From: Planctomycetota bacterium
Lineage (GTDB): Bacteria > Planctomycetota > SZUA-567 > H5-PLA8
Assembly: GCA_045863855.1 (NCBI GenBank)
Contig: BTVV01000002.1
Coordinates: 78,083-142,082, forward strand
Direction of reading: 5' to 3'
Length of the DNA: 64,000 nt
Positions 31,210-48,109 of this stretch are shown here, in pieces. Position 1 is the stretch's first letter; each line of letters begins with the position of its first letter. The position numbers were made by a program, and so were the translations under genes. Below the pieces are notes generated by a model. That model ran no database searches. It saw nothing but the letters and a program-made list of their open reading frames with translations, and was not told the origin of the DNA.

Positions 31210-32304
31210 TTAAGCATAGTCCGCCAGGTACACCGGTTGGCGCTTGGCGCCCCAGTTTCCCGGTTGCGCTTCAAAGACCCCGGGGCACGCCGTGCCGCAG
31301 TCGGGGCACGCGCCTTGGGGCGTCAGGCGGTACGCGAGTATCGTGTACCAGTCCCGCACGATCAGCGGCTTGCGGCAGCAGTGGCAGGAGGTTGTGCCGC
31401 CTTCCCGGTCGTGCACGTTTCCCGTGTACACAAAGCGCAACCCGTTCCGGATCGCAATCTCCCGCGCGCGCACGAGCGTCCGTGGCGGGGTGGGGGGGTG
31501 GTCCTGCATTTTCCAGTCCGGATGAAAGGCCGTGAAGTGGTGCGGCACATCCGGGCCCAATTCCCGCATCACCCATTGCGTCATGGATTCGATCTCGGAT
31601 TCGCTGTCGTTTTCGCCAGGAATCAGGAGCGTGGTGATCTCGAACCAGACCTTTGTCTCGTGTTTCAGATACTTCAATGTCTCCAGCACCGGCGCGAGCT
31701 GCCCGCCGCAAATCTTGGCGTAGAAGTTTTCGGTGAAACCTTTCAAGTCCACGTTGGCCGCGTCCATATAACGGTAAAACTCGGCGCGCGGCTCGGCACA
31801 CTGGTATCCCGCCGTCACGGCAACACTGCGGATCCCTTGAGCACGGCAGGCTTGCGCCACATCGATGGCGTACTCGTGGAAGATCACGGGATCGTTGTAT
31901 GTAAACGCGACGCTGCGGCAGCCCAGGTCTTTGGCGGCGCGTGCGATGGTATCGGGTTGCGCTCGATCGGCCAGCGTATCGAATTCCCGCGATTTGCTGA
32001 TGCTCCAATTCTGGCAGAACTTGCAGGCCAGATTGCAGCCGGCGGTGCCGAAGCTGAGGATCGGCGTGCCGGGCAGGAAGTGATTGAGCGGCTTCTTTTC
32101 GACCGGATCGATGCAGAAGCCCGACGACCGGCCGTAGGTGGTGAGCACCATCCCGCTCCCTTCGCGCTTGCGCACGAAGCACATTCCGCGCTGGCCGTCG
32201 TGCAAGCGGCAGAATCGTGGACAAAGGTCGCATTGAATGCGGCCGTCGTCCAGAATGTGCCAGAACTTTGCGGGGTGCGGTTCGAGTTTGTGGGACACGT
32301 TCAT
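31210..32304 (-). CDS. amrS: AmmeMemoRadiSam system radical SAM enzyme
   Basis: CDLCPRFC..GMC, DPVEKKPLNHFLPG, CNLACKFCQNW, AFTYNDP, C-terminal Cys pairs. Confidence 0.92.
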   Translation of the reverse strand: MNVSHKLEPHPAKFWHILDDGRIQCDLCPRFCRLHDGQRGMCFVRKREGSGMVLTTYGRSSGFCIDPVEKKPLNHFLPGTPILSFGTAGCNLACKFCQNWSISKSREFDTLADRAQPDTIARAAKDLGCRSVAFTYNDPVIFHEYAIDVAQACRAQGIRSVAVTAGYQCAEPRAEFYRYMDAANVDLKGFTENFYAKICGGQLAPVLETLKYLKHETKVWFEITTLLIPGENDSESEIESMTQWVMRELGPDVPHHFTAFHPDWKMQDHPPTPPRTLVRAREIAIRNGLRFVYTGNVHDREGGTTSCHCCRKPLIVRDWYTILAYRLTPQGACPDCGTACPGVFEAQPGNWGAKRQPVYLADYA

Positions 32305-32322
32305 CCTCCCGCGTCCACCGGA

Positions 32323-32556
32323 CTAATGCGGATGGCGCGTGGAGGCTTGCAGGCGCGCCACGATTTTCAACCCGTGGGAGCAGTACAGTGCCAGGTAACC
32401 GAACACCAGCGCTGGAGCGGCCATCGCATAGAGCAACGGGAATGGCATGTCCGTCGCATGCCAACCGAACAGACAAGCCGGAATCGATATCGCCCAGCTC
32501 AAGATAAGACCGGCGCCGAACATGGCCAGAATGCGGCTACGTACCCGGCTCTGCAT
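32323..32556 (-). CDS. Small two-TM membrane protein
   Basis: 77-aa hydrophobic ORF filling the gap between co-oriented genes; GGAGG upstream. Confidence 0.55.
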   Translation of the reverse strand: MQSRVRSRILAMFGAGLILSWAISIPACLFGWHATDMPFPLLYAMAAPALVFGYLALYCSHGLKIVARLQASTRHPH

Positions 32557-32585
32557 AATCCGAGCCTCCAGGCTCTAACTTCAAG

Positions 32586-34202
32586 TTATCGAGCGGGCGC
32601 GGGTGAAGTCAACGGCAATCCGTCACCGCCTTCGTTCCGTTTGGGCCGGTATACGCGCAGCGCCCCGTGTTGCGCTTCAAACTCGTAATGCTCGCGCATG
32701 ACGTCGAGCATGGCGTCGCTAAAGCGCTGCCGATGCCAGGACGGATCTCCGAAGAGATCGAACTTCAGAACGATGCGGTCGTAGCGACGATTGCGCAATT
32801 CATCCAGAAACGGTCCTTGAATCCACAAGCCCTGTTCGGCCAATTGCGTCATCTCGAAGGGCTGGAAACGAAGTTCTTTCCCGGCCAACACGACCAGCGT
32901 AGTGTCTTCCGAGAGCACGGCGCCCGGCGCGTCGCGCAGCGCTTTCAACACGAACGGATCCTGCTCTTCAAGGCGTCGTTGCAAGGCATGCTCCATTTCG
33001 GCGAGCAGTTTCAGGTGATCGAAGCGCACGAACTGAACGGTAAGCAACAGGATGGCCCCGCACGCGCCCAGCACGGGGAACAGGCCCTTGCCCCATAACT
33101 CTTTTAGCGGCGGCGCCGCGGCGAGGAGATCGGCGAGCAGCAATCCGGTAAGGACGCCGCACACGCACAGGAACTCCAGTTGGTAGTTGATGAACGCTCC
33201 GGCTTTCCCAATCATCAAGGATGTCGCGAATGCCGTGAGGCCGTAGAGGCACCACAAGAGCCTCGGGTGCGGACGCTCCGCGTGAGGAGTTTGCATCCAG
33301 GAGGTGAACTGCCAAAGACCGCCCAACCCACCCAGAACGACCAGGCGGCCGTGCTCTTCCATCAGCGATGCCAGCATGTGGCACGCCTGCGGCCAAGAGT
33401 AGTGATTGCGATTGGCCGTCACCAGGTGATTCCAGAAGCCGCCGTCCGTAAAAAGGGTTGCGAGGATCAGCAGGAGGAATCCCGCGCCGACGAATCCCGC
33501 CGTGAAGCGCAGGCCACGTCCCAGATTTTGCACGCAGGCCGCCGCGACGCACGCCGCGGGCGCCGCCAGCATCGACTGCTTGGTGAACAGCGCGGCAATG
33601 AGCAGTACGCCGACTGCGTAGGGGCCCCACGAACGCTCGAATGCTCGCGCGCTCACCACCACCGCGGCCAAGGAGCAAGCGACGGCCAGCGTGTCTACGC
33701 GCAGAAGCACGCCCCACAAGAAAGCGTAGGTGGGCGCGAGGACCGCGCCCCCCGCGGTCAATGCGAAGGCCAGCGCGGCGAGGTAATCGTCGCCGCTGCA
33801 CGCGCCGCGGCGGCGCAGATCCAGCGCATGTGCGCCCACGGCCCATGCGGCCAGCGCGGCCGATGCAAAGAGCGCAAGCACGCTGACCCAACGGCCCGCG
33901 GAAAGATAATCCCCCGTGAACCAGGCGGCGAAGCGCGTGGCGGCTCGGAACACGGGCGGATAGTTGGTGACCGTATGCGGAGGCTCGCGCCACGATTCGT
34001 AGAGGCCATGCCCGGCGTCAGCCGCGTGCAATTGCGCCAGAATCGGCCCTTCGCCGTAATCGAGTTCGTAAGGAAAGTGGGTTGCCGTCCAGGCCCAAAG
34101 CGCGAACTGCGCTCCCAGCCAGAAGCCCACGGCCACCGGCGGCGCCAGCGGAAGCCAGTTCCAGCGGCCCATCGGTTCAAGCGAATCCTGTTCCCGAATC
34201 AT
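32586..34202 (-). CDS. GT-C fold (ArnT/PMT-like) membrane glycosyltransferase, paralog 1
   Basis: FPYELDYGEG, NYPP, GRWVS, RVD, TKQS; polytopic; ATGA overlap with upstream paralog. Confidence 0.75.
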   Translation of the reverse strand: MIREQDSLEPMGRWNWLPLAPPVAVGFWLGAQFALWAWTATHFPYELDYGEGPILAQLHAADAGHGLYESWREPPHTVTNYPPVFRAATRFAAWFTGDYLSAGRWVSVLALFASAALAAWAVGAHALDLRRRGACSGDDYLAALAFALTAGGAVLAPTYAFLWGVLLRVDTLAVACSLAAVVVSARAFERSWGPYAVGVLLIAALFTKQSMLAAPAACVAAACVQNLGRGLRFTAGFVGAGFLLLILATLFTDGGFWNHLVTANRNHYSWPQACHMLASLMEEHGRLVVLGGLGGLWQFTSWMQTPHAERPHPRLLWCLYGLTAFATSLMIGKAGAFINYQLEFLCVCGVLTGLLLADLLAAAPPLKELWGKGLFPVLGACGAILLLTVQFVRFDHLKLLAEMEHALQRRLEEQDPFVLKALRDAPGAVLSEDTTLVVLAGKELRFQPFEMTQLAEQGLWIQGPFLDELRNRRYDRIVLKFDLFGDPSWHRQRFSDAMLDVMREHYEFEAQHGALRVYRPKRNEGGDGLPLTSPAPAR

Positions 34203-35773
34203 GGTTTCTCGCGCGCCGCTTGCCGCGGCCGGTACAGGAAGAAGGCGCCGATGCGGCGCTCGAACGCATACGCGTTTCCCATGGACTCGAGCATCTCTTC
34301 CGTGAAACGTTCGCGGTAAAAGCCCGGGTCCTTGCCCAGTTCGAAGTTTAACGCGATCAGAGCGTACTTCCCGGACTTCAGCTCTTCTAGGAACGGGCGC
34401 TGATCCCAAGCGCCCTGCAGGCTCAATTGAGTCATAATGAACGGCTCGAATTCGAGCGGCCGGCCGGCCAGAACCAGGTACGTGCAGTCTTCGCAGATGA
34501 CCGGGCCTTTCGTTTCACGAATGGCCTTTATCATCATGGGACCGTGCACGCGCTCCTGGGAATCTTTGTAACGCGTCGCGCTGGCGATCCAAAGCGTATG
34601 ATCGCCTCGCCCCAGACTCCAGGCCAGCAGCAGTGCGGCGCATACGCCTGCTACCGTTCGCCAGCCCGCTTCTTTGCGCGCGCAAGCGAGCAATCCGTCG
34701 GCGGCTAAAGCGCCTCCTAAAGCGATCGAGATGGCGAGCGCTTCGATGAAATAGTTGGGGTTGGATCCTACTTTTCCCACGCTGGCCGAAGCCAGCCAAG
34801 CAAATACGAAATAAAGCAGCGCGACCAGCCGCGCGTGGGGACGCGCGCCGCGCGGCGAGGTTGCATAAAGCCCGGCTTGGTGGAGCGCTCCGGCCAAGCC
34901 TAACAGGGCGAACCAGCGCTCGCTGACCAACGTTTCGGACCACATCGAAAAAATGCGCTCGACGAAAAATGCGTTGCGGTTTCCGGTGATAATATTCTCG
35001 AAAAATACGCGGCCGGTCAGCCACTCGCCCAAGCCGATCAGAGCCAGCCCGGAAACCCCCAGGGCGGCACAAAAGCACAGTCCTTCCTTCCAGGAGCGCA
35101 AGCACCACGCCAGGCCGATCGCCAAGGGTGCGGCGATCATCGAATGTTTCGTGTACAGCGCGAGGAGCAGCAGCGGCAGCAGGAGCCACGCCCAGCGTCC
35201 TCGCGCGGCCAACATCGGGTATACCGCCACGGCCGCGAGCGAGAGCGCCCAGCCCATGGCGTCGGGGCGGTAGAGCATGCCCCAGTAAAAAATGGGCTCG
35301 GAACCCAGGACGCTTAATCCTGCGGCGACGCAGGCGCCAGCGTGGAGTGCGCGCGAAGTACCGGCCGAGCTATCCGTGGTGAGGCGCCATACCAGCACGC
35401 TTGCGGCAGCGGCGGCCGCCAAGGTGCTTAGGGCGCTCAAAAGCCGGCCCCCGGCCAGCAGCGATCCCCAGGCTCGTCCCACGCCCCAAGCCGTCCAGAG
35501 ATAAACCGGCGGGTATACCGAAGCGCGGTACGGTGGCGTGGCCAGCGCGTCGTAATGGGGACCGCCCGAATCCAAGAGCGCCGTCTGCGCGAGAATGGTG
35601 CCTTCGCTGTAGTCGATGGCATAGTCGAAGCCGACGACCAGATCGGCCCATTGAACGAACTGCGCGCATCCGCGCAGGCTCAAGACCAGCATGGGCAGAA
35701 GCACCAGCCACGCAATCCAGGTGCGGCGCGCCGGGGGCTTCTCGGAAGGCGTAATTCCATTTGAGTCGGCCAT
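34199..35773 (-). CDS. GT-C fold (ArnT/PMT-like) membrane glycosyltransferase, paralog 2
   Basis: FDYAIDYSEG, VYPP, GRLLS, RPD, TKHS; colinear similarity to paralog 1. Confidence 0.75.
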   Translation of the reverse strand: MADSNGITPSEKPPARRTWIAWLVLLPMLVLSLRGCAQFVQWADLVVGFDYAIDYSEGTILAQTALLDSGGPHYDALATPPYRASVYPPVYLWTAWGVGRAWGSLLAGGRLLSALSTLAAAAAASVLVWRLTTDSSAGTSRALHAGACVAAGLSVLGSEPIFYWGMLYRPDAMGWALSLAAVAVYPMLAARGRWAWLLLPLLLLALYTKHSMIAAPLAIGLAWCLRSWKEGLCFCAALGVSGLALIGLGEWLTGRVFFENIITGNRNAFFVERIFSMWSETLVSERWFALLGLAGALHQAGLYATSPRGARPHARLVALLYFVFAWLASASVGKVGSNPNYFIEALAISIALGGALAADGLLACARKEAGWRTVAGVCAALLLAWSLGRGDHTLWIASATRYKDSQERVHGPMMIKAIRETKGPVICEDCTYLVLAGRPLEFEPFIMTQLSLQGAWDQRPFLEELKSGKYALIALNFELGKDPGFYRERFTEEMLESMGNAYAFERRIGAFFLYRPRQAAREKP

Positions 35774-35824: not shown

Positions 35825-37732
35825 TTAAGGATTGCGGTCGCGTTCGATGCGCGGAATCAGCTCACCGGCGTCCGGTCTGGTATCGTCCGTGCTCGATCGG
35901 CTTCGAAACTCGTCCATGCCGGGCGGTTCCGGAAACGCGCGCTCGGGGGACCATCCGGCCTGCCGCGCCTGTTGGTAAAGCGGTTCGTGGATGCGGTCGA
36001 AGACCATCCTTCGCACCTCGGCCGGCGAACGCTCCCAAAGCCTGGCCTTGAGCGGAATCGGCACCGCACCGGGCGGGCTGAGCATCGTCTGCACGAAGCC
36101 ATCGGCGACCAGGTTGACGAAGGGAGGCAGGACCAGCGCGCCGCGCGCCGTCAGGCGTCCGGCGGTGAATTCGCGCATGTAATGGTCGTAGATACGGTCC
36201 TTGGCCAGGCGCAGAAAGCGCTGCGCCGTTTCGGACTGCCCTTCCGCCCAGCCTTCGAGAATCGCGCGCTGAATCAACATGGCCAGCGTGGAGCGGACGT
36301 GCTCGATCACGTCTTGCCCGCGCGTGAGTTGGCGCACGACGAAATCCTCTAGCGGTAACGCGTAGGCGCCGCGCGCCTGCGCTCCGTACGTGCGGCGCAG
36401 TTTCTCGTAATAGCCTTCGGCGGCGGCCGGTCCCGAAAGAAGATACGCTTGCGGTACGGCCCATTCGAGAAATCCGCGATGCGAGGCCGCGAAATCGGCC
36501 GCGCTGTAAAAGCCCGTGTTCTTTCGTGCGCCCGCGTCCGTCAACGCTTTCTCGAAGGCATCGAAGAGCCGCGCGTCGGGGCTTTGACTGTAGTAGCCGT
36601 TGACCAGATCGAGATTCACGCGGCCGCCGAAGGCGAGCATCTGCAGACTGTGCAGGATGAAGCGGTCGGCGGTAAGCATGTCGTAATCGTACGCGTGCTC
36701 CACGGCTTCGCCGGCCGCGATGCCGCGATCGGCCCAGTACAAGCTGTGCGCGGCCGGATGACGCCAGTCGAGCGGTCCGAATTTTTCCGTCAGCGCCGCC
36801 ATGACGGACGGGTCCATGCGATAGTAGCGGCGCAGTTCCAGCGCGCGCCAGAAGGCCAGCGCCTTGGCCACGGTGCCGGCGTCACGGGATTCCGCGAACC
36901 ACGAGTAGACCCGCTCGTCGACGGCGCGGCGTGCCGGATCGGCTTCCCGCGCCAGTGCGGCCTTGATGCCGCGTTCGCCGAAGCGCCGGAATTCCAGCGC
37001 GCGTCCGATGCGCCGCACGCCTTCCGCGTGCTCCGGCAGTCCCAACGCCCACCACGATTTCAGCACTTCTGCCGCGGCGGGGCTTTGGAGAACCAGGGAT
37101 TCGAAATCCCCTGGAGCGTCCGACAGCGCGCGCATCGCCGCAAGCGCTCTGGACTGCCCGCCTTCCGGAGGCGCGCCCAACAACTCGTGCCACTCCGATG
37201 CGAACTGCCGCTTGTAGTACCAGTGCGAACCGACGGCGAACTTGCCGAGCTTGTGGAAATAGATCATCGAAAGTTCGTGATAGAGTCGAATCTCGTGCGG
37301 ATTGGCGGGAATGCCCTTGTCGCGAAGCAGGCGGATGCCGTTCTGCACCCACAGCCACTTCTCTTCGTCGGTCTGCACCGCATCGGAGATGTTGTAGGCC
37401 ATGTTCCAGGCCTGGAAGGCCCAGACCGAAGGAAAGCGGGGCTGCAGATCGGTGATCCAGCCGGCCAGTTCCATCGCTTCGTAGAAGCGGCCTTCATCCT
37501 GCATGCGTCCGGCACGCAGCCAGAGGTAATCGACCGCGAGCCCGCGAAAACTCCCCAACGCAGCCTGGGTGATCGCGATCTGCGGGGGCAACTCTTTGAG
37601 CCGTTCGGGATCGAGCGTCATCTGCAGCGCTTCGCGCCGCGCGTCGATGGCCGGCATGGTTTGCGCCGCGCCCAGCCAAGCCGCGGCGGCAAGACCCAGC
37701 GCCGTCAGGATCGCTCCGCGCTCCGAACTCAT
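35825..37732 (-). CDS. Membrane-anchored helical-repeat protein ('IRE'-annotated planctomycete family; PilG/XapA-like)
   Basis: LGSFRGLAVDYLWLRA, LQPRFPSVWAFQAWNMAYNIS, GIPANP; N-terminal anchor; ATGA overlap with permease. Confidence 0.7.
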   Translation of the reverse strand: MSSERGAILTALGLAAAAWLGAAQTMPAIDARREALQMTLDPERLKELPPQIAITQAALGSFRGLAVDYLWLRAGRMQDEGRFYEAMELAGWITDLQPRFPSVWAFQAWNMAYNISDAVQTDEEKWLWVQNGIRLLRDKGIPANPHEIRLYHELSMIYFHKLGKFAVGSHWYYKRQFASEWHELLGAPPEGGQSRALAAMRALSDAPGDFESLVLQSPAAAEVLKSWWALGLPEHAEGVRRIGRALEFRRFGERGIKAALAREADPARRAVDERVYSWFAESRDAGTVAKALAFWRALELRRYYRMDPSVMAALTEKFGPLDWRHPAAHSLYWADRGIAAGEAVEHAYDYDMLTADRFILHSLQMLAFGGRVNLDLVNGYYSQSPDARLFDAFEKALTDAGARKNTGFYSAADFAASHRGFLEWAVPQAYLLSGPAAAEGYYEKLRRTYGAQARGAYALPLEDFVVRQLTRGQDVIEHVRSTLAMLIQRAILEGWAEGQSETAQRFLRLAKDRIYDHYMREFTAGRLTARGALVLPPFVNLVADGFVQTMLSPPGAVPIPLKARLWERSPAEVRRMVFDRIHEPLYQQARQAGWSPERAFPEPPGMDEFRSRSSTDDTRPDAGELIPRIERDRNP

Positions 37733-39309
37733 GACGCGCCCCGCGCCACTTCGCGCTTGCGGAAGATCAGCCAGGCGGTCACACCCGTCGCGCCTGTCCA
37801 GGCCAGTCCGATCCACCCTGCGCAGGCCCATACTTCGCCGCCTTCAACCAGCCGGCCGCTGACCACGGCATCGACGGGTGCGAAGCGGCTGAACTGCTTC
37901 AATACGGCCGCCAAGGCGCCGACGACGACCTTCAGGACCGCCGCCAGCAGTTTGGCGGCCTCGCCGGGCGTATTCTCGCCGAAGAATTCCAGCGCCTCGC
38001 CCAGGTATCCGCTCGAACTTGCGAAGACTAAAACCATCAACGCCAGCAGGCTTGCGACGGGAAATCCGAGGAACGTGGCCGCACAAAGCCCCAGCGCGCC
38101 CAGGAAGATCAGTTTGACCCACTGCATCGCCAGTGCGCGCGCCAGGTTTCCTTCGAAGCTCCCCGCCGCATAAAGCACTTCCAGTCCTTCACCGGGCAGA
38201 AACGTGGCGGTCGTATCGAAGGTCTGTTGCGGTGCAAGCGGGTTTTCGTGAACGATGGTGAGTTCCAGCCGCCCATCGGGGCCGATCTCCTCGAGCGGTA
38301 CGGGCAGCACGAGGTACGCGTTCACCGGCATGCGAATGCCGCGTTCGCGCCCGTTGAACGCGATGCGCATCAGCAATTCCAAGTTGGGCGGCGCGCCGGA
38401 TGTGCGCATCCGCATGCGCAACTGCACAGCCGCGCGGTCTCGTACCGCCTGCTCCAGTCCGGTGAAGATAAACGTGCGGCGCTGGTGCGGCGAAAGGTTG
38501 TGCGCGTTCAGTTCCACCTGATGCCGAACCTGGCGTTCGAATGCGGCGCGTCCCGTTTCGGCGACGAAGGCCGGATCGTTCGCCTCAACTTCTCGGATGC
38601 GCCGGCGAACTTCCTCCTCCAGGCCCGCGGACGCTTCCGGGGCCAGCGCCTTCCGCGCGGCGAGCACATCTTCCGCGACCGCCCGCGCGTCCTCCACATC
38701 GAGCGCCGGCTGCGTGGCCAGCAAGCGCGTGAAGCCCCAGATCGCCAGTCCCGCGACGCAAAGCAGCAGTGCATTAAGCAGCGCCAGTCCGATCCCCTTG
38801 CCCAGCAAGTACGCGCCGCGCGAAAGCGGCTTGCTCAGTACTGTATAGATGCGTTTGTCTTCAATTTCGTGGCAGACCGTCCCGCACGCCAGGAAAATGG
38901 TCATGAAGCTCAGCAATAGACCGGTCGCGCCGAGGGTGTAACTCAAAAAAGTTTGGATCCGGTAGCGCAGCGGCGAGCCCGGATCGAGCGTCAGCGGAAG
39001 CGTGACGAGCAACAGCAGCAACACGCAGACGAAGACGACGGCCACCCGCATGCGCAGCGCTTCGTCGAGAAACGTGCGCGCCACGCCCAGCGGCGCCCAG
39101 GCGTACGAGAGCAGTCCGCGCACCAGCGCCAGCCCGGCGAAGAACGTCCACGTCGCGGCGGTTGCACCCAAAATGGCCACGCCGGCGCCCGCGCGCCACG
39201 GCGCCCATCCCGTGGCCGCCCACACGATCGCGCCCGCGACGCCCAATCCGGCAAGCGTCAGAATCGCCGCCCAACCCCAGCGGCCTGCGGCGCTGTGGGG
39301 CATCTTCAC
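37729..39309 (-). CDS. ABC-2-type exporter permease with large extracytoplasmic loop
   Basis: EIEDKRIYTVLSKPLSRGAYLLGK motif; multiple TMs; GTGA overlap with ATPase stop (alternative ATG 39303). Confidence 0.85.
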   Translation of the reverse strand: MKMPHSAAGRWGWAAILTLAGLGVAGAIVWAATGWAPWRAGAGVAILGATAATWTFFAGLALVRGLLSYAWAPLGVARTFLDEALRMRVAVVFVCVLLLLLVTLPLTLDPGSPLRYRIQTFLSYTLGATGLLLSFMTIFLACGTVCHEIEDKRIYTVLSKPLSRGAYLLGKGIGLALLNALLLCVAGLAIWGFTRLLATQPALDVEDARAVAEDVLAARKALAPEASAGLEEEVRRRIREVEANDPAFVAETGRAAFERQVRHQVELNAHNLSPHQRRTFIFTGLEQAVRDRAAVQLRMRMRTSGAPPNLELLMRIAFNGRERGIRMPVNAYLVLPVPLEEIGPDGRLELTIVHENPLAPQQTFDTTATFLPGEGLEVLYAAGSFEGNLARALAMQWVKLIFLGALGLCAATFLGFPVASLLALMVLVFASSSGYLGEALEFFGENTPGEAAKLLAAVLKVVVGALAAVLKQFSRFAPVDAVVSGRLVEGGEVWACAGWIGLAWTGATGVTAWLIFRKREVARGAS

Positions 39310-40562
39310 GAGCGCCGATCCTTGTCGAGCAAATCGTCGAGTACGCTGCGATCCACGCGAGCGGCATCGTTCAGCAGAGGTTGCGCGGGTTTGGCTGGCG
39401 CGGGAGGCTTGGGCTGGGGAGATTCCGACGCGGCGCCGGTAAGCAGTTCGTTCAATACCTGCCGGTCGGCCACCGGTGGGCTTGCCTGCGTTTCGGCAGC
39501 CGGCGCCGGCTCGGCCCTCGGCCGGGGCGCGGTTGATTGCGCGAGTTCCGTAAGCACCTCGCGGTCCACGCGCGTGCCCGTTAACGCCACGGAGGCCGGC
39601 GTGAGCACCGGCTCGGCCGCGGCAGCCGATTCCACTCCCGCTCCCAAAAATCCCGCCACGGGTCCGCCCGCACCGGCGCCATGCGTCGTCGCGCCTTCGG
39701 CGTGCGCCTGTTCGACCAGTTCCAAAAACAACGCTTCGAGCTTCTTTCGCGGCGCTTCGACGCGCCGAACTTTCGCGTGTCCCGTACCTTCGATCAGCGC
39801 CCGCACCGGCTCGACTTCCTCCGGCTTCAGACCTTCGGCCTCGAAGATCACCGCGTCGCGCTTGGCGAGCAGTTCGTCGACGGTGCCTTGCGCGCGCACG
39901 CGGCCGCCGTACAGCACCGTTACGCGGTCGCAGACGTCTTCGACATCGGCGAGCAGATGGCTGCACAGCAGCACGGTCTTTCCGCGTGCTTTCAGATGTA
40001 AAATCAAATCTTTAATCTGGCGCGTGCCGATCGGATCGAGCCCCGTCGTGGGCTCGTCGAGGATCAGCAACTCGGGATCGTTGATCAGCGCCTGCGCCAG
40101 TCCGATGCGCCGCTGCATGCCCTTCGAGTATTCGCCGACGGGGCGATGCTGCACGGCTTCGAGGCCGACCATCTCCAGCAGCATGTCGATGCGCCGCTTC
40201 CGCTCGGATCGCTCCAACTCGAACAGCCGCCCGTAGTACTCGAGCGTCTCGCGCGCATTGAGGAAGCGGTACAAGTAAGATTCTTCGGGCAGATACCCGA
40301 TCTTCGCCTTGGCGCGGACATCCGAAGGCAGCCGGCCGAAGACGCTGATTCGGCCGGACGTGGGATGCAGCAGTCCCAGGATCAACTTTATGGTGGTGGA
40401 CTTGCCGGAACCGTTGGGCCCCAGCAACCCGAAGACTTCGTGCGCGCGTATCTCCAGGTCCAGGCCGTTCAGCGCCTTTACGCGCGGGCGCAGCCAGAAA
40501 TCGCGGAAGACCTTGGTCAGGCCGCGGCATTCGACGAGCGCGGTGGGGGCGTCGTTGGACAT
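39306..40562 (-). CDS. ABC transporter ATP-binding protein with long C-terminal tail
   Basis: GPNGSGKST, YSKGMQRR, LILDEPT, CSH. Confidence 0.96.
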   Translation of the reverse strand: MSNDAPTALVECRGLTKVFRDFWLRPRVKALNGLDLEIRAHEVFGLLGPNGSGKSTTIKLILGLLHPTSGRISVFGRLPSDVRAKAKIGYLPEESYLYRFLNARETLEYYGRLFELERSERKRRIDMLLEMVGLEAVQHRPVGEYSKGMQRRIGLAQALINDPELLILDEPTTGLDPIGTRQIKDLILHLKARGKTVLLCSHLLADVEDVCDRVTVLYGGRVRAQGTVDELLAKRDAVIFEAEGLKPEEVEPVRALIEGTGHAKVRRVEAPRKKLEALFLELVEQAHAEGATTHGAGAGGPVAGFLGAGVESAAAAEPVLTPASVALTGTRVDREVLTELAQSTAPRPRAEPAPAAETQASPPVADRQVLNELLTGAASESPQPKPPAPAKPAQPLLNDAARVDRSVLDDLLDKDRRS

Positions 40563-40567: not shown

Positions 40568-41968
40568 TCAGCGCTTCGGCGGCGGCGCGGCCTCCTGCTG
40601 CTGTTCCAGGTAGCGCCGGCGTTCGCGCTCGGCGCGGATGCGCGGGTCGCGGTTCACTTCCAGATACAGTTCCTTCGTGCCGGACGGAAGGTAGAACGTC
40701 TCAACGTCTCCGGCCAGAATCTCTTCCAGCGCGTCCTGCAAATGCCGGCTGCGGACAATGCGCGGATTCTGCAAGTACTGCGGCGCCAGCGCCTGGAACG
40801 TTTCGGCTTCCGCGCGGACTTCCTGGACCTCGTTGCGCCGGTAGGTGCGCGCTTCTTCCATCAGGCGCGCGACGGTGCCGTACACGTCCGCGCCCAGTAA
40901 CTGCTCGTCGAGGGCCGCTTCGGCTTCTCGCACTTGTGCTGAGATCTTCGCGCGCCGGGCGGTCTCGTAGAGCGCAATGGCGTCGAGCAGCTTCAGGTAG
41001 CGGTCGCCGGCCATATCGGTCAGCGTCTGGCTGCGGAATTTCGCGGCGGCCTCCAGCTTGTTGGCCTTCTCGCTCTCGGACGCGATCACGGCCTGAAAAT
41101 CCTGCCGCAGCGCCAGCGGCGGCGTGGGATCGGCCAGCGCCACGTTGACGACGCGGATTCCCGTACCCATGCGGTCCAGCGCCGCTTGCACGACCGCGCG
41201 CAAATCTTCCTTGGCGATCTGCCCCGCGCGGAATGCGTCGGCGCTGGTCCGTGCCGCCAGATGCACCGCGGCCTGCTCCGAAGCCGACCGAACCAGCTCC
41301 TCGGCGCGCTTCAGCATCCCCGGTCGACCGCCCGCGGTCCCGATCGCCGAAGCGAAGCGCACGGCCTCTTCGCGCGGCACCGCCCACGTCACGCTCCAAT
41401 GCGCATGGAAAATGTTCCGGTCGCCCGTCAGCAGCGAGCCGTCCTGCCCCGGCACCAGCCCGCCCGTGGGAACTTTTAATTCTTCAAGCTTCTTGCCGTG
41501 GTCCTCGGGCTTCACCTCGAACCAGAACGCGCGATCCAAGTTCACGACCTGTTGCGTCGTCGGAACCGTGATGACTTCGTCGATCGGCTGCGGAAACGCG
41601 AAGTATGGCCCGCCGGCTTCGCGAACCGTACCGGCTTCGGTGGCCACCACACGGCCCAGCCGCAGCAGCACCGCGACTTCGCCTTCCTGGACGTAGAACC
41701 AGCCGCTTCCGAAGAAGGCGACCACCAGCAGCGCCATCACCCATTTCAGGAGCCCAAAGCTGACCTTCAGCGCATCCGAAAGCGAACGGTTGGCCGGATC
41801 GAGGTCTTTATCCGCATCCGGTCCTTCCGGCTCGGCGTGATGATGGTGATGATCGTGCCCGAAGATCGAGATCTTCTTGGGCTCGTGCCCGTGGCCGTGA
41901 TCGTGCGCATGCCCATGGTCATGCCCGTGATCGTGCCCGTGCGTATGTTCGTGTTCGTGGCCGGCCAT
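40568..41968 (-). CDS. HflK-like SPFH protein with His-rich N-terminus
   Basis: TM, VQEGEVAVLLRLG, FPQPIDEV, LLTGDRNIFH, coiled-coil tail; 19 His in first 44 aa. Confidence 0.88.
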   Translation of the reverse strand: MAGHEHEHTHGHDHGHDHGHAHDHGHGHEPKKISIFGHDHHHHHAEPEGPDADKDLDPANRSLSDALKVSFGLLKWVMALLVVAFFGSGWFYVQEGEVAVLLRLGRVVATEAGTVREAGGPYFAFPQPIDEVITVPTTQQVVNLDRAFWFEVKPEDHGKKLEELKVPTGGLVPGQDGSLLTGDRNIFHAHWSVTWAVPREEAVRFASAIGTAGGRPGMLKRAEELVRSASEQAAVHLAARTSADAFRAGQIAKEDLRAVVQAALDRMGTGIRVVNVALADPTPPLALRQDFQAVIASESEKANKLEAAAKFRSQTLTDMAGDRYLKLLDAIALYETARRAKISAQVREAEAALDEQLLGADVYGTVARLMEEARTYRRNEVQEVRAEAETFQALAPQYLQNPRIVRSRHLQDALEEILAGDVETFYLPSGTKELYLEVNRDPRIRAERERRRYLEQQQEAAPPPKR

Positions 41969-41984: not shown

Positions 41985-42917
41985 CTACTTCTTCTCGCCC
42001 ACGTCCGGCTTCGGCATGGGCCGCGCATCCGGCTTCAGCAGGTCGAAAGGCGCGGTTTCCATGTCGAGCAGGAAGGTGGTGTTCTGCTTCAGCGTCTTGC
42101 GCAGCGCTTCGATTTCGCGCAAAAAGATCGCGAAGTCCTCGCTCTTCTCGAAGACGTTGTAGTACTCGGCGGCCGCGGCGTCGCCTTCGGCGCGGATCGC
42201 TTCGGCGCGCCGGTCGGCGAACGCCTGGATGATCCGAGCCTGCGATTCGGCTTCGCTGCGAATCTTGCTCGCGATCGCGTCGCCGCTGCTGCGCGCGGTG
42301 CTCGCCATCCGCTCGCGCGTCTCGCGCATGCGCGTGAAGACCGTCTTCGAAACGTCCTCGGGCAGACCCAGCCGCTTCAAGCCCACCGTCTCGACCTGGA
42401 TGCCGTAGCCCTGCGCGCCCAGTTCTTCCTGCAGCCGCGTCTTGATCTTCTCTTCGACCTCCGCCAGCTTGAGCTGCTGCGGATCGGTGCTCGTCAACTC
42501 GTCGAAACGGTACCGGCTCACGATCGCGTTCGCTTCGCGCAGGCGTGCTTCAAGCTGCTTCTGGCCGTCGGTTACGTTTCCCAGCGAGCGGAAGAAGGCC
42601 AGCGGGTCGCCGATCCGCCACGCCACGTAAGCGGTCACGATCAGCGTGTGATTGTCTCGTGTCGTCATTTGCTCCAGCCGCGTCTCGTGAAGCTGCACCC
42701 GCCGGTCGAAGACGCGCACATCCTGGATCGGATAGGGCCACTTCCAATACAGGCCCGCGCCTTCGCCGTCGGCGTTCTTCACGGCGCCGTCGCCGGCTTT
42801 ACCGAAGGTCGTCACCACCGCGGCTTCGTTGAAGCGCACGGTGAACGAGACCATGTAGAGCAGCAGAACCAGCACCACGAGGATGCCGGCGGCCATCGAA
42901 TGAAGGTGCTTCGGCAT
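41985..42917 (-). CDS. HflC-like SPFH protein
   Basis: AVVTTFGK, GLYWKWPYPIQ, TRDNHTL, WRIGDP, RMRETR, IRAEGDAAAA. Confidence 0.92.
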   Translation of the reverse strand: MPKHLHSMAAGILVVLVLLLYMVSFTVRFNEAAVVTTFGKAGDGAVKNADGEGAGLYWKWPYPIQDVRVFDRRVQLHETRLEQMTTRDNHTLIVTAYVAWRIGDPLAFFRSLGNVTDGQKQLEARLREANAIVSRYRFDELTSTDPQQLKLAEVEEKIKTRLQEELGAQGYGIQVETVGLKRLGLPEDVSKTVFTRMRETRERMASTARSSGDAIASKIRSEAESQARIIQAFADRRAEAIRAEGDAAAAEYYNVFEKSEDFAIFLREIEALRKTLKQNTTFLLDMETAPFDLLKPDARPMPKPDVGEKK

Positions 42918-42924: not shown

Positions 42925-44967
42925 TTACTCCTTGGACTGCAAGTTCACGGGCGCCAGTTCCGCGCCCTGGTCCTTCAGGTCGAAACGAACGGTCAGATTA
43001 CGGCGGTCGGCCAGGAGCAGATACTTGCGCCGCTCGGCCAGCCCGTCGGCCAGCACTTCCAGGTATCGGCGCATGCGGTACAGCCGCGGCGCGCGAGCGT
43101 AAGCGAGCAATTCGCGCTCGAAGCGCTCGGCCTTGGCGCGCTCCGCGTTTTCGCGTTCGTGCCGGTAGGCCCGGGCCTCGGCGATTCGTTTCGAAGCTTC
43201 GCCGCCGGCCGACTGTAGCAGCGTTTCGATCTTCGCTTCCTGCGCCGCCAGCGCCGCGGCATCGCTCTGATCCTGGCGCAAGGCTTCGAGCCGTTCGATC
43301 TCCGCGCCGATCGTACGAGCCAGTTCGGGTGTGCCGGCCGCGGCGGCGAGTTGTCCGATTGCTTCGCGCAGCGCGACTTCGATCCGCGCTTCGCGTTCCT
43401 GGTGCGCTTGAACTACGCGGTGGAACGCTTCGGCAACTTCCTGCGGAGGATGGATACCGGCCATGCCCACGAAAACCACGTCCAGGCCCAGCCGTTCGCG
43501 GTCGGCCTCGGCTTGCAGAAGTTCGCGCAGCTTCGGGCCCAAGGCTGCGCGTTCGGGCCCCAACCAGGTGTCTTCGTCGCCGGCCAGAAGTACGCGCGCC
43601 GTCTCGCGCTCGGCCAGCGCCACCAGCGCCGCTTCCGGATCCTTCTGATGGCGCGAGTACGCCACCAGATCTTTGATCCGGTAATTGAGGAAGACTTCCG
43701 CCGCCAGCAGCGAGACCGAAGGAGCCTTGCCGCCGCCGGTTTCGCCGTCGCCTTGCGGCATCTGAATCAGCGCCCGCGGCGGAGCGACGAGCAGCAGTTC
43801 TTCGGCTTCCGCGTGCTGATTATTCCAAAGGATCGGAGCCTGATCGTCCATCATATGCGCGTGCGAGCCCACGACGATCTGCCGGATGCGCGTCACGTCG
43901 TACAGTTCCGCGCGTTCCACCGGCCAGGGCCATTTGAGATGCAGTCCCGGATCCAGCGGCTCGGAGCGGGACAGTTCCCCGAAGCGCAGCACGAGCGCCT
44001 GCTGCTGCGGTTCGACTTTCACCAGACACGAGAGCAGCAACAGCGCCGCGACGGCCACGCCGGTTAGCGGCGCCAGCCAGAGCGAGAGCAACTTCCAGAA
44101 CCAGCTCCGCGTCACTTCGAAGCCGAACTGATAGTTCACCGCTTCTTGCAGCGCGCTGGCCAGGCTGCCGGGACTGGTCAGCAATCCCAGCAAACGGCTG
44201 TCGAACGCCGGCCGCGGTGTCTCGCCGGGCTTGCGCGGGCGATACAGGTTCAACACCAGCCCCGCCAGCATCTCCGCGCCCAGCAGGCCCTCCAGTACGC
44301 ACAGGACAAAGGGCAGGTAATGCAGCAGCGCGTAGGATTCGAAGTGGACGAATGCCAGCGCCAGCGTCACGGCCGCCGAGACCAGCGCGGTGCCCATCAG
44401 GAAGCCCGCGCCGCCGCGCAACAGGATCCACTCGGCCTGCCGGGTCATCCCTGCCACATAGCGGCCGATCAGGAAGGTCGCGAATGCGATGCCCAGCGCG
44501 AAGGCCATGGGCAGAAGAGGGCGCGTCAGCCCGTGTGCGCTTTCGGCATGCGCGCTCAGCCAAGTCTCGGCCGCGCCCATCCGCCAGATCGCTCCTGCGA
44601 GCAGGAAGATTCCGGTGCACAGGCCCGTCAGCGGCAGCCCGATGCGGCGAAGCTGTTCCAAACGCCGCTGCGCGACGTTCAATTCGGCCGCGGTCTCGCC
44701 GAAAAGCTGCGTGTCCGGCCCGGCCGAGGCAAGGCGTTCGGCCTCCAACGCTTCCATCCGCTCGAGCCGGTGTTGGTGATAAAGGAGCAGCAAGCATAGC
44801 CACACGGGGATGCCGCCGGCCGCGTACCAAGCCGCGGGCAAAAAGACGATCGGATCGCCGGCGAACGCGATCGCCGCCAGCCCCGCCGCCGCCGCCAGTT
44901 GCGCGCCCAAACCGAGCAACGCGCCTGCTACCGCGCGCTGGTAACTTTGCGGAGTCAGCGCGCTCAT
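42925..44967 (-). CDS. HflK-like SPFH protein with polytopic N-terminal membrane domain
   Basis: About 350-aa hydrophobic N-half, then ALVLRFG, PGLHLKWPWPVE, IHPPQEVAEAF. Confidence 0.88.
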   Translation of the reverse strand: MSALTPQSYQRAVAGALLGLGAQLAAAAGLAAIAFAGDPIVFLPAAWYAAGGIPVWLCLLLLYHQHRLERMEALEAERLASAGPDTQLFGETAAELNVAQRRLEQLRRIGLPLTGLCTGIFLLAGAIWRMGAAETWLSAHAESAHGLTRPLLPMAFALGIAFATFLIGRYVAGMTRQAEWILLRGGAGFLMGTALVSAAVTLALAFVHFESYALLHYLPFVLCVLEGLLGAEMLAGLVLNLYRPRKPGETPRPAFDSRLLGLLTSPGSLASALQEAVNYQFGFEVTRSWFWKLLSLWLAPLTGVAVAALLLLSCLVKVEPQQQALVLRFGELSRSEPLDPGLHLKWPWPVERAELYDVTRIRQIVVGSHAHMMDDQAPILWNNQHAEAEELLLVAPPRALIQMPQGDGETGGGKAPSVSLLAAEVFLNYRIKDLVAYSRHQKDPEAALVALAERETARVLLAGDEDTWLGPERAALGPKLRELLQAEADRERLGLDVVFVGMAGIHPPQEVAEAFHRVVQAHQEREARIEVALREAIGQLAAAAGTPELARTIGAEIERLEALRQDQSDAAALAAQEAKIETLLQSAGGEASKRIAEARAYRHERENAERAKAERFERELLAYARAPRLYRMRRYLEVLADGLAERRKYLLLADRRNLTVRFDLKDQGAELAPVNLQSKE

Positions 44968-45028
44968 GCCGCCCTCCGTCTTGCCAGAAGTGGCGCTTTC
45001 CGGGCCAACCGCGGCGCCTGCTCGCGCG

Positions 45029-45034: not shown

Positions 45035-45074
45035 CGGCAGCCGTTCGATTCGTCTGCGCCCACGGGATGCCGGC

Positions 45075-46049
45075 ATGCCGAGCCGACTCTGGACAATCGC
45101 CGCCAATACGTACTGCGAATCGATCCGCCAGCCGGTCTTCGTCGTGCTGCTTTGCGGCGCCAGCCTGCTCCTGATGCTTAACATCGCCGTCTGCGGCTAC
45201 GCCTTCGAGGACGACAACAAACTGCTCCTGGACCTGGGCCTCAGCACGATCTTCCTGGGCGGACTGCTGCTCGCGGCCTTCACCGCGACGGGTGTCTTCA
45301 GCCGCGAGATCGAGAACAAGACCGTACTGACCGTGATCAGCAAGCCCGTCGGACGTCCGCTCTTCGTGGCCGGCAAGTTTCTGGGCGTCGCCGCCGCGCT
45401 GGCCACGGCGTGCTGGGTCTGGACCCTTTTGTTCATGCTTACCGTTCGCCACGGCGTCATGACCCGCGCCAACGATCCCTTCGACGAGCCCGTGCTGCTT
45501 TTCGGCCTCGGCGGTTTTGCGCTCGCGGGGTTGCTCGCCGCCTCGGCCAATTACGCGTACCGCTGGGTCTTCGCTTCCACCTTTACCGGAGCGCTGGTCG
45601 TCATCGAATCGATCGCTTACATCCTGGTGCTCTGCCTTGGCAAAGGTTTTGTCATTCAGCCGCCCGAGACCGATTTCGATCCGCGCCTTTGGCTGGCCGC
45701 GCTGCTGGTCTTCGAGGCTCTGGCTGTGCTCTGCGCCGTAGCTATCGCCGTTTCCACGCGGTTGGGTCAGGTCATGACCCTGGCGATCTGCTCGGCGGTC
45801 TTCCTGCTGGGCTTGAGCAGCGACTTCTTGTTCCGCGCGCGCGCCGAAGAGAACGCGCTCGCCAAGATCGCCTACTCGCTCGTGCCGAATTTGAACTTCC
45901 ATTGGCTGGCCGAACTGCTGCATCGCGAACACACCCACCTGGATGAACTCTGGCCCTTGCTGGGGCTTGTCAGCGCCTACAGCGCGCTCCACGTGGCCGC
46001 GATTCTGGCGCTGGCCGTGGCGTTCTTTCAGACCCGCGAGGTCGGATAG
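45075..46049 (+). CDS. ABC-2-type exporter permease (PilI-like)
   Basis: IAANTYCESIRQP, EIENKTVLTVISKPVGRPLFVAGKFLG, LVPNL. Confidence 0.88.
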   Translation: MPSRLWTIAANTYCESIRQPVFVVLLCGASLLLMLNIAVCGYAFEDDNKLLLDLGLSTIFLGGLLLAAFTATGVFSREIENKTVLTVISKPVGRPLFVAGKFLGVAAALATACWVWTLLFMLTVRHGVMTRANDPFDEPVLLFGLGGFALAGLLAASANYAYRWVFASTFTGALVVIESIAYILVLCLGKGFVIQPPETDFDPRLWLAALLVFEALAVLCAVAIAVSTRLGQVMTLAICSAVFLLGLSSDFLFRARAEENALAKIAYSLVPNLNFHWLAELLHREHTHLDELWPLLGLVSAYSALHVAAILALAVAFFQTREVG

Positions 46050-46105
46050 TTCCGCGCCGCCGTTCGTTCTCGTGTGCTTCAAACCATTCACGTTCGTCTG
46101 TCCAT

Positions 46106-48109
46106 TCATGCCGCATGCGCCGCGTGCACGCGCGCCGGTTCCGCCAGCGGCGCTTCCGCCGGACCGTCCAGGTCTTCGCCTTCGCGCACCAGCCGGGCGG
46201 AATTGAAGATCACGATCGCTTCCGCGCCCGCGTGCAGCAACGCCGCGAGCGCCGGCGGCAGGCCGCCCGCCGCGCTGACCGCCAGCAGCGATACGATGAA
46301 CAGCCCGCCGAAGATCAAGTTCTGCCGCACCACGGTCGTGGCGCGCTTGGAGAGCCGAATGAGGAACGGAATGCGGTTGAGGTTCTCGTTCATCAGCGCG
46401 ATCGAGGCCGAATGAATCGCCACGTCGCTGCCGGCCGCGCCCATGGCGATGGAAATGTGGCCGGCCGCCAGTGCCGGAGCGTCGTTCACGCCGTCGCCCA
46501 CCACCGCCACTAAATGCCCGCGCTTTTTGATCCCTTCCACGATTTCCAGCTTCTCGCCGGGCAGCACTTCGGCCTTGAGGTCCGTGCAGTGCATCTCGGC
46601 CGCGACGCGCCGTGCGACGCTGACACGGTCGCCCGTTACCATCACGAGCTGCGGGACGCCCAGCGCGCGCAGCTCGTCCAGCGCCGGAGCGGCCGACGGT
46701 CGCGTCTTGTCTTCCATGCCGATCCAGCCCAACACCCGCGCGCCGCGCGAGACATGCAGCAGGCTCAAGCCTTCGGCTTCCGCGCCGGGCGCTTCACCCA
46801 GGTCGAGGCCGCGTTCGGCCAGCCAGGTCGCGCGTCCGACGCACAAGTCTTCGCCGTCCAACACCGCCAGGACGCCGTGCCCGGAGACTTCCTCGAAGCG
46901 TTCGGGCTCCCGGATCGGTATCCGCGCGCGCTGGGCGACTTCCAGGACCGCCTTGGCCACCGGGTGCTTGCTGTGCTGTTCCGCGATCGCCGCCGCCGCC
47001 AGCAGTTCCGCCGCGTCCACCCCCGGCGCGGGGCGCAGCTTGGTGACCGAAAGCGTTCCCGTGGTCAGCGTGCCGGTCTTGTCGAAGATGATGGCCGTCA
47101 GGTTGCGCGCGACTTCCAGATCGCTGGCCTTCTTGATCAGAATCCCCAGCCGCGCGGCGGCCGAAAGCGCCGCGACCATCGCCGTCGGCACCGCCAGGAT
47201 CAGCGCGCACGGCGTCGCGATCACCAGCATCGAGATCGCACGGTTCAGATCTTTGGTGAAGAAGAGAACGATCCCCGCCAGCATCAGGACCGTCGGCGTG
47301 TACCAGCGAGCGTAGCGGTCCATCAGCCGCGCGATCGGCGTGCGCGTCCGTTCGGCCTGCAGAATGAGCTGCTGCACCTGGCCCAGCGTCGTGTCTTCGC
47401 CGGCCTTCGTGATCTTGACCTCCAGCGTGCCGGTTAAGTTGATCGTGCCGCCGAAGACCTCCGCCCCCTGGCTCTTGTCCACGGGGATCGATTCGCCCGT
47501 GATCGTGGCTTGATTGACCGTGCTGAACCCGGTGAGCACGACGCCGTCGCCGGGGATATTGTCGCCGGGCCGCACGCGAACTACGTCGCCGGCGCGCAAA
47601 TCCTTCGCCTCGATCTCCTGCTCGCCTTCGGGTCCGACCTTGAACGCCCGCGTCGGCGTGACGCGAATCAGGCTCTCGATGGCCGCCCGCGCGCCCAGCG
47701 CCGTGCGGCTCTCGATCAGCTCGGCCAGGATCATGAAAAATGCGATCGCGCCGGCGGTGAGGTATTCGCCCATGGCGAATGCCGCGAGGAAGGCCAGCGC
47801 CACCAGCTCCGTCATGTGCGTGTGGCCGGTGCGTAGATCTTTCCAAGCGTTCGCGACGATCGGCGCGCCCAGCAAAGCCGCCGCAAGGAAGGCCAGCGCA
47901 TCGGAGTAGAAATTCCGGACCACGTGCGGCTCGGCGAAATCCGGATGGATTCCTACCGTGCCCGAGGGTTCGCCCGTCGCAGCCGCAAAGAGGTACCGCG
48001 CCGCGAGGCTCGCGACCAGCAGCACCCCGCCCAGCAACGTGACCACGATCTCCAGGCTGGCCTGCCCGGAATCGGCGGTGATCTGATCCTTCAAGTTCGA
48101 ATGGGCCAT
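46106..48109 (-). CDS. Heavy-metal-type P1B ATPase
   Basis: TGES, ATPCAL, DKTGTLT, SKHP, TGD, GDGVNDAPAL; no N-terminal CxxC domain. Confidence 0.95.
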   Translation of the reverse strand: MAHSNLKDQITADSGQASLEIVVTLLGGVLLVASLAARYLFAAATGEPSGTVGIHPDFAEPHVVRNFYSDALAFLAAALLGAPIVANAWKDLRTGHTHMTELVALAFLAAFAMGEYLTAGAIAFFMILAELIESRTALGARAAIESLIRVTPTRAFKVGPEGEQEIEAKDLRAGDVVRVRPGDNIPGDGVVLTGFSTVNQATITGESIPVDKSQGAEVFGGTINLTGTLEVKITKAGEDTTLGQVQQLILQAERTRTPIARLMDRYARWYTPTVLMLAGIVLFFTKDLNRAISMLVIATPCALILAVPTAMVAALSAAARLGILIKKASDLEVARNLTAIIFDKTGTLTTGTLSVTKLRPAPGVDAAELLAAAAIAEQHSKHPVAKAVLEVAQRARIPIREPERFEEVSGHGVLAVLDGEDLCVGRATWLAERGLDLGEAPGAEAEGLSLLHVSRGARVLGWIGMEDKTRPSAAPALDELRALGVPQLVMVTGDRVSVARRVAAEMHCTDLKAEVLPGEKLEIVEGIKKRGHLVAVVGDGVNDAPALAAGHISIAMGAAGSDVAIHSASIALMNENLNRIPFLIRLSKRATTVVRQNLIFGGLFIVSLLAVSAAGGLPPALAALLHAGAEAIVIFNSARLVREGEDLDGPAEAPLAEPARVHAAHAA

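Follow-up and report, generated by a model that had tools for sequence, protein, structure and literature searches.

We analyzed a stretch of 64,000 nucleotides from a Planctomycetota bacterium (assembly GCA_045863855.1, contig BTVV01000002.1, positions 78,083 to 142,082), hereafter called the window, and in particular the twelve genes lying at its positions 31,210 to 48,109. Our main result is that the conserved unit comprises eight of these genes, not twelve, namely those encoding three SPFH proteins (the HflK-like K1, the HflC-like C and a second HflK-like protein, K2), a P1B-type ATPase (hereafter the pump), an ABC-2 type ATPase, permeases A and B, and a helical protein of TPR-like appearance. 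The reading that we favor, tentatively and with a little less than even confidence, is that the SPFH proteins would form a cage dedicated to the co-encoded transporters rather than to FtsH, and that the ABC-2 module would be functionally tied to it.

The extent of the unit emerges from the loci of K1 relatives. A search of species-representative genomes gave 600 candidates and at least 588 relatives, of which we retained the 80 best and scored the synteny of their loci by tblastn; most bear Phycisphaerae or Planctomycetota in their titles, and the names of homologues likewise assign the present genome to Planctomycetota (loci, genomes and contigs are designated below with L, G and C numbers, respectively). 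Among these 80 loci, C and permease B were each recovered 73 times, K2 71, the ABC ATPase 61, permease A 59, the helical gene 55 and the pump 45 times, the glycosyltransferase (GT) and amrS genes only once each. Thirty-seven of the loci are fully flanked, the others being often cut by contig ends; counted among the 37 are L018, the sibling locus at 97% identity, and three close relatives. All 37 have C and K2 in the three-gene order K1-C-K2, and none the two-gene hflK-hflC layout. Each of the ABC ATPase, permease A, permease B and helical genes is present in 35 of the 37 (all four together in 34), the pump is adjacent in 22, and GT and amrS genes occur in one locus each. When 19 genomes with a pump-less locus were tested, every one matched the pump elsewhere (E <= 1e-120), with an identity of at least 51% in 17. 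A second sample of 151 evenly chosen Planctomycetota genomes, the results of which were cross-read by eye, contained full-length K1 (E <= 1e-90; next best 8e-63) in 25 genomes from 13 families; all 25 carry the helical protein (E <= 1e-49), in 20 cases within 12 kb on the same contig, and all 25 carry the pump (E <= 1e-115), which is adjacent in 17. An earlier reading of this DNA, made without database searches and hereafter called the sequence-only reading, had expected SPFH, P1B and ABC/TPR genes to co-occur across genomes, and both counts bear this out.

Gene linkage survives rearrangement of gene order. The order permease B-K1-C-K2-P1B-ABC-permease A-helical gene is found on a single strand in L007, L011 and L015, permease B is inverted with the pump behind K2 in L062, L069, L078 and L082, and in the present genome the pump has been relocated ahead of permease B. 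From K1 to amrS the minus-strand genes are separated here by 7, 16, 5, -4 (GTGA), -4 (ATGA), 51, -4 (ATGA), 29 and 18 bp, exactly the tight run with 5-51 bp gaps and three ATGA/GTGA overlaps seen in the sequence-only reading. Permease B starts 107 bp from the K1 start in divergent orientation and the pump converges on it with 56 bp in between, which agrees in position and strand with the divergent second permease and neighboring P1B ATPase of that reading. Its SPFH, ABC, P1B and amrS labels agree with family scans, in which all three SPFH genes match Band_7, both permeases ABC2_membrane_2 and the pump E1-E2_ATPase/Hydrolase (table 1).

Table 1. Genes of the cluster, with positions in the window (aa, amino acids; ORF, open reading frame; TM, transmembrane helix)
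Gene product	Positions	Strand	Length	Evidence	Status
P1B-type ATPase (pump)	46106..48109	-	667 aa	TIGR01525 534 bits, above cut-off	core of conserved unit
Permease B, ABC-2 type	45075..46049	+	324 aa	ABC2_membrane_2 E 1.1e-6	core
K1, HflK-like SPFH protein with predicted CDF/ZnT-fold N-domain	42925..44967	-	680 aa	Band_7 E 3e-16	core
C, HflC-like SPFH protein	41985..42917	-	310 aa	one TM; TIGR01932 137 bits	core
K2, HflK-like SPFH protein	40568..41968	-	466 aa	Band_7 E 1.8e-16	core
ABC-2 type ATPase	39306..40562	-	418 aa	ABC_tran, DrrA/GldA-like	core
Permease A, ABC-2 type	37729..39309	-	526 aa	ABC2_membrane_2 E 7.8e-7	core
Helical (TPR/HAT-like solenoid) protein	35825..37732	-	635 aa	predicted model	core
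GT1, probable GT-C (PMT_2-like) membrane glycosyltransferase	34199..35773	-	524 aa		local passenger
GT2, tandem GT1 paralogue	32586..34202	-	538 aa	35% identical to GT1	local passenger
Hydrophobic small ORF	32323..32556	-	77 aa		passenger
AmrS, AmmeMemoRadiSam radical SAM enzyme	31210..32304	-	364 aa	TIGR04337 648 bits	family-level neighbor only

The most distinctive protein of the unit is K1, which the sequence-only reading had described as an HflK-like protein of 680 aa; its SPFH (Band_7) domain is confirmed, but its N-terminal domain had been overlooked. We divide K1 into a six-helix domain of predicted CDF/ZnT fold (approximately residues 1-245), a linker, an anchor helix, the HflK-like SPFH domain and a coiled coil. 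The structure predicted for residues 1-317 from an alignment of 112 rows (mean predicted local distance difference test score, pLDDT, 90.9) has SLC30A10 as best structural match (Z 14.4, root-mean-square deviation [rmsd] 3.1, 182 aligned residues), ZnT3 reaching Z 13.3 and the next unrelated rows, ferritin-like bundles, Z <=9.7. Because helical bundles can attain Z ~13 by chance, the CDF fold needs further support. The top six Foldseek rows were YiiP and ZnT1 (E 0.04-0.17), and the Atlas structure search returned Cation_efflux (TM-scores 0.52/0.60). A profile of residues 1-250 matched the N-domains of three intact CDF::HflK fusions at 91.5% (E 8.8e-7, 194 columns), and four control membrane alignments at 0.4% or less. 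Searches of K1 by sequence did not detect the CDF domain, giving no Pfam Cation_efflux match. The metal site A of CDF transporters is defined by the motifs (H/D)xxxD in TM2 and HxxxD in TM5, neither of which is present in K1: in its alignment (n=112), position 48 is His in 54 sequences and position 52 Gly in 108, position 188 is Gly, Ser or Ala in 104 and position 192 Gly in 97. The intact CDF::HflK fusions (L012, L105 and L121) retain HxxxD in both helices. Since both site A aspartates have been replaced with glycine and the histidine of TM5 has been lost, K1 is most likely a pseudo-transporter, as judged from alignment and model.

The intact CDF::HflK proteins head three-SPFH operons of the same kind as that in the window. 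In L012:5607-11933, CDF::HflK is followed by HflC, a second HflK and a ZntA-like pump with an N-terminal metal-binding domain, and in L121, an Aquibium plasmid on which the fusion is annotated just as hflK, by HflC, a second HflK, a peptidylprolyl isomerase and a P1B pump. A third arrangement occurs in L104:6920-9904 (minus strand), where an open frame of 995 aa joins a P1B ATPase to an HflK-like domain and is followed by HflC and HflK. The N-termini of proteins in the K1 position thus appear to form a series: an intact CDF transporter, a whole P1B pump or a site-less CDF domain. The membrane topology of CDF transporters is well established. Together with the seventh helix of K1, this topology would place the SPFH domain on the periplasmic side, like that of HflK/C (PMC2636767). 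Complex prediction with K1 1-317 and pump residues 10-650 gave a score of 0.00 in two runs, which weighs neither way.

The pump has no N-terminal metal-binding domain but shows the motifs DKTGT, TGES, GDGVND and HP, together with a membrane xPC motif. In an unrooted tree of 23 rows, it groups with SPFH-linked pumps of both kinds, including the proteobacterial ones, in a branch of 18 rows (99% in the Shimodaira-Hasegawa-like approximate likelihood ratio test, SH-aLRT). SPFH-linked pumps share a histidine in the last TM, found in 45 of 48 orthologues, and are split from CopA- and ZntA-like pumps by a 99% branch. The window protein belongs to an SPFH-linked, probably HmtA-like subfamily; the tree was built from rows other than HmtA (PA2435) itself. 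In its last TM the window pump and that of L002, from the same genus, have Glu (LHAGAE) versus LHxxSS in most relatives.

In the window a long HflK-like gene is followed by an HflC-like and a short HflK-like one, and a P1B gene lies nearby, which reproduces the layout of hmtA operons. In Proteobacteria, K1-C-K2-P1B recurs on replicons of Paraburkholderia, Burkholderia, Rhizobium and Klebsiella. When metagenomes were scanned with K1 of Paraburkholderia, two loci were found. The triple-SPFH module of Paraburkholderia in L017:28-7622 is preceded by genes that encode a GTP-binding protein, an ABC importer for zinc and the copper chaperone PCu(A)C. As judged from gene order and protein size, the SPFH-trio plus P1B half of our cluster appears to match the Pseudomonas aeruginosa locus PA2439-PA2435 (hmtA), an orthology that rests on order, size and plasmid-borne modules. 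PA2437-9 probably correspond to PaFlo5-6-7 (PA14_33070/33080/33110) of a 2026 study, in the main text of which the word ATPase is absent (PMC13086221). PA2437-PA2439 and hmtA are up 5.6-14.4 fold in a Zn-depleted znuA mutant (PMC4542158), the protein products of the locus are more abundant when Zn is low (PMC11761036) and the PA2439 promoter is bound and shifted by Zur (PMC8531726). HmtA has been described as a Cu/Zn importer (PMC8456098; import activity also in PMC11923076). Deletion of all nine SPFH genes of P. aeruginosa has little phenotype under standard conditions (PMC13086221).

All three SPFH proteins of the window combine Band_7 with an N-terminal membrane anchor and a coiled coil, and by sequence the K1 profile finds HflK as its top match in the PDB (E 1.8e-37). 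An alternative reading is that the trio might be the FtsH-regulating HflK/C cage of this lineage, with a duplicated HflK, and that the transporters would be neighbors, or substrates whose turnover by FtsH the cage controls. C passes the HflC cut-off, if marginally (TIGR01932, 137 bits vs 134.4). The genome has four Band_7 matches, three at this locus and a flotillin-like one on contig C32; its sole Peptidase_M41 match is an intact FtsH with two TM helices and a periplasmic domain, on contig C59. As the sequence-only reading had noted, neither ftsH nor hflX lies in the window (an HflX homologue is on C5). The meaning it attached to this absence does not hold: in E. coli K-12 the order is miaA-hfq-hflX-hflK-hflC-yjeT-purA, without ftsH, and since hflKC has no ftsH beside it there either, its absence here is uninformative. 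FtsH regulation stays a live rival because this genome has no separate E. coli-like HflK/C pair, and FtsH could use the trio, a point that counts against dedication to the transporters. FtsH is, moreover, a zinc enzyme, and papers on Zn limitation interpret PA2437-9 accordingly (PMC11761036).

Other evidence speaks against this alternative, which we consider unlikely. K1 and K2 score 101.9 and 72.1 bits with TIGR01933, both failing the HflK cut-off of 159.4; their alignments with E. coli HflK span just 74-91 residues, versus 260-270 residues (32-35% identity) for the separate E. coli-like hflK-hflC pairs that G143 and G073 possess in addition to this cluster. P. aeruginosa likewise retains canonical hflKC beside its SPFH trio (PMC13086221), and the transporter::HflK fusions point to transporters as clients. 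In an unrooted HflC tree of 38 rows (L103 was excluded, its match being under 200 residues), the window protein falls in a clade of 23 rows (support 100/99), 21 of which have ABC-module neighbors, and this clade is separate from both E. coli HflC and the HflC of pump-only modules. The numbering of the contact residue quoted in PMC12048511 (Arg191) disagrees with that of E. coli K-12, in which residue 191 is Ala.

The second half of the unit is an ABC-2 exporter, composed of an intact ATPase and two ABC2_membrane permeases. The ATPase has Walker A, the signature YSKGM, Walker B with the catalytic Glu and the H-loop; it matches the GldA model with E 5.9e-57 but scores below both the DrrA and GldA cut-offs (193 bits vs 402.6 for the latter). 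According to hydropathy, permease A has a large extra-membrane loop. The helical protein has a hydrophobic N-terminus and an all-helical predicted model (pLDDT 83); it matched no Pfam family, its fold searches gave generic TPR matches alone (best Z 10.9, rmsd 6.3), its Atlas clusters are nameless and its 68 shorter homologues include no informative name. In L110 and L111 an ABC/permease/helical module devoid of SPFH genes is followed by a common ORF with the motif HDHLDGG, which we take to be adenosine-deaminase-like.

Taken together, these features can be arranged in the following scheme. K1, C and K2 would co-assemble into a periplasmic ring or cage, as expected from the HflK/C family, which would serve the co-encoded transport proteins rather than FtsH. 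The CDF-fold domain of K1 may have been inherited from an intact CDF::HflK fusion and, devoid of its site, could serve as a scaffold built into the membrane that the ring encloses. The P1B ATPase would be the primary client; the transition metal that it moves would most probably be Zn or Cu, the metals described for HmtA, and the His-rich N-terminal tail that precedes the single TM of K2 might buffer or pass on this metal on the cytoplasmic side. The ABC-2 transporter (ATPase, two permeases and the anchored TPR-like partner) would have joined the trio in Phycisphaerae and neighboring lineages, becoming either another client of the cage or an exporter that relies on the same metal supply, as gene order suggests. 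A precedent for SPFH cages around transporters is stomatin with AQP1/UT-B (PMC12407830). The sequence-only reading had also placed a three-subunit SPFH cage around a metal pump and an exporter; with the genes co-conserved this remains the best reading, but the coupling to glycosylation that it added fails, as discussed later.

Several observations weigh against this scheme. Physical coupling of trio, pump and ABC module is something that we infer from sequence. The sampled genomes are kin and not independent samples, and for this reason no statistic on co-conservation is given. The pump is non-adjacent in 15 of the 37 fully flanked loci, and in the window it has TPC (residues 299-301) instead of the CPC found in 43 of 48 orthologues, a change shared with L002 that may alter selectivity in this genus. 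The tail of K2 contains at least five His in 34 of 66 loci but is weak or absent in the other 32. The N-domain of the one proteobacterial K1 tested (L122) was unaligned with that of the window protein (probability 1.5%). One study found hmtA mRNA not to be repressed by Zn (PMC8531726), and deletion of the three-SPFH operon in PA14 produced slight phenotypes only (PMC13086221). A crude word count revealed no Zur/Fur-like palindrome shared upstream of the pump (51 loci) or of K1 (85 loci).

Moreover, each half also occurs alone. A K1-C-K2-P1B module free of ABC genes is found in other Planctomycetota (L098, L099, L100, L102 and L108), and ABC-permease-helical genes stand without the SPFH trio in L110, L111 and L113 and, by ORF reading, L112 and L114. 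The ABC/helical module is far more widespread, its helical N-domain being found in 114 of the 151 phylum genomes versus 25 for K1. These facts could be explained by two machines in one operon, a trio plus pump working as in hmtA and an ABC-2/TPR system acting as a phylum-wide envelope exporter of PilGHI- or GldAFG-like layout, joined once in an ancestor and kept together by shared regulation or slow rearrangement. Since all sampled linked HflC proteins belong to one clade, a single ancestral joining would explain the pattern, and the position of the cluster amid housekeeping genes is consistent with it. Against it, where the pump has been displaced (15 fully flanked loci), the ABC genes have remained next to the trio in 13 cases, and permease B keeps its place by K1 in either orientation, all this at 25-45% protein identity, whereas GT and amrS turn over. 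On balance, two machines seem to us somewhat unlikely, though a possibility to be taken seriously. A stronger form of the cage proposal, in which the transport-dead CDF domains of K1 act as adaptors that hold both the P1B pump and the ABC-2/TPR system, so that metal is delivered within the cage to an exported or matured substrate, is distinctly unlikely in our judgment; if true, a bacterial SPFH cage would use a pseudo-transporter for its scaffold and would house, as built-in clients, two ATP-driven transporters unrelated to each other.

In its full version, the sequence-only reading had the cage couple metal delivery to both export and glycosylation of a surface substrate by GT-C enzymes, and counted both GT genes and amrS into the machine. 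The tight spacing with ATGA overlap does run on through the GT genes and their homologues match PMT_2, yet this version is highly improbable. Among L001-L097, of which 35 loci show 1.7-3.6 kb beyond the helical gene, the GT profile finds nothing beyond the window and L018, its sibling at 97% identity; GT1 is matched in 4 of 41 related genomes and its homologue in the other genome of the genus is ~420 kb away from the SPFH genes. Given that GT genes occur in one of the 37 fully flanked loci, the glycosylation arm was dropped. Similarly, amrS directly follows the helical gene only in two same-family genomes (L003 and L005), so that its inclusion in the machine finds no support; the downstream neighbors, GT and amrS, change within genus or family. 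Hence, the GT-C genes, the small ORF and amrS appear to be bystanders, and synteny largely refutes the version with glycosylation. The earlier designation of two GT-C genes holds through homologues only, because the window proteins GT1 and GT2 have no Pfam match of their own and PMT_2 is matched by four of the nine members of their alignment (best E 2.7e-7); no PDB match was found for these proteins. The frame of the small ORF is kept in G002 with 84% DNA identity, gapless over 213 bases.

Other scans for regulatory elements gave the following results. Upstream of the window pump there is a palindrome, TGTAATTACA, which is unshared by relatives, and any one AT-rich inverted repeat recurred in at most 2 of the 51 regions upstream of pumps and at most 4 of the 85 upstream of K1. 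Scans for promoters (1 vs 2.5) and terminators (18 vs 18.4) were at chance level. The best word share among RNA runs was 0.11; RNA contigs from relatives ~90-95% alike cover parts of most genes and none spans the cluster, such contigs revealing neither strand nor single transcript. In two runs of one study, contigs over the small ORF and amrS end at 32562, a signal too weak for calling a promoter.

The cluster is surrounded by housekeeping genes (tRNA-Lys, an L28-like ORF and ruvAB). Directly upstream of the pump (about 48430-48840, minus strand) there are tRNA-Lys(CTT) at 48763-48838 and then a short basic ORF, presumably that of ribosomal protein L28; in L023, L027 and L037 the pump is preceded by a gene end that we take to be pheS. 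The gene at 49098-50411 (plus strand) encodes a TPR protein with two RNA polymerase alpha C-terminal domains and is upstream of the pump also in the same-family loci L003 and L005. Between ruvA and ruvB lies a gene for an AbiEii/DUF2204-like nucleotidyltransferase (51217-52008, plus strand), with a third-position GC content (GC3) of 0.64, below that of its neighbors. On the other side of the cluster, a gene for a GntR-family regulator with a sugar-binding domain (27860-29002, minus strand) lies ahead of that for a secreted-looking protein of 1725 aa with an FlgD Ig-like domain (22686-27863, minus strand).

The sequence-only reading had put this machine forward as a candidate undescribed one. 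The triple-SPFH plus P1B half is in print as an operon of P. aeruginosa (PMC4542158; PMC13086221), but the eight-gene form is unpublished as far as we found: no paper on it or on the CDF domain of K1 was retrieved from the literature searched, which is thin on subscription journals. Regarding the roles of bacterial SPFH cages beyond FtsH control, the cluster names candidate clients and a condition, Zn/Cu supply, and the fusion series of K1-type N-termini makes the idea of a cage plus transporter directly testable. The cluster also provides a handle on an uncharacterised ABC-2/TPR module that is present in about three quarters of the sampled Planctomycetota genomes. In G020 (L013, L109 and L131) the cluster is scattered yet all kept, with K1 on contig C38, C on C49, the K2-like gene on C48, the helical gene on C83 and the pump on C28, offering a natural test case for function without linkage.

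We finally compare the cluster with known systems. K1 would have in common with the CDF/ZnT proteins YiiP, ZnT1, ZnT3 and SLC30A10 the predicted six-helix membrane domain, but it differs in the degenerate site A, in a conserved helical insertion between TM2 and TM3 and in having an HflK-like SPFH domain in place of the CDF cytoplasmic domain. The ABC-2 module shares with GldAFG of Bacteroidota and PilGHI of myxobacteria the gene layout of an ABC-2 ATPase, a permease and an anchored partner; the ATPase is under the GldA cut-off, and no pilin genes were seen among the genes examined at 22.7-54.7 kb. PilGHI itself has been called ABC-like without experimental support (PMC6060248). The E. coli HflK/HflC-FtsH complex (PDB 7vhp, 7wi3 and 9cz1) resembles the trio in SPFH domain and coiled coil, as well as in the HflC assignment of C. 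It has two subunit types versus three here, and lacks the six additional TM helices of CDF fold predicted for K1; besides the HflK scores of K1 and K2 and the separate HflC clade, the genes of the window are linked to transporters instead of hfq-hflX. The P. aeruginosa hmtA locus (PA2439-PA2434) also has three SPFH genes and a P1B ATPase in one operon (PMC4542158; PMC13086221), whereas the ABC-2/permease/TPR module is unreported there, and the CDF-like N-domain is undetectable in the proteobacterial K1 mentioned above. SPFH proteins of 666, 346 and 337 aa are listed for P. aeruginosa (PMC13086221), similar to the 672/339/346 of the Rhizobium module and the 680/310/466 here.

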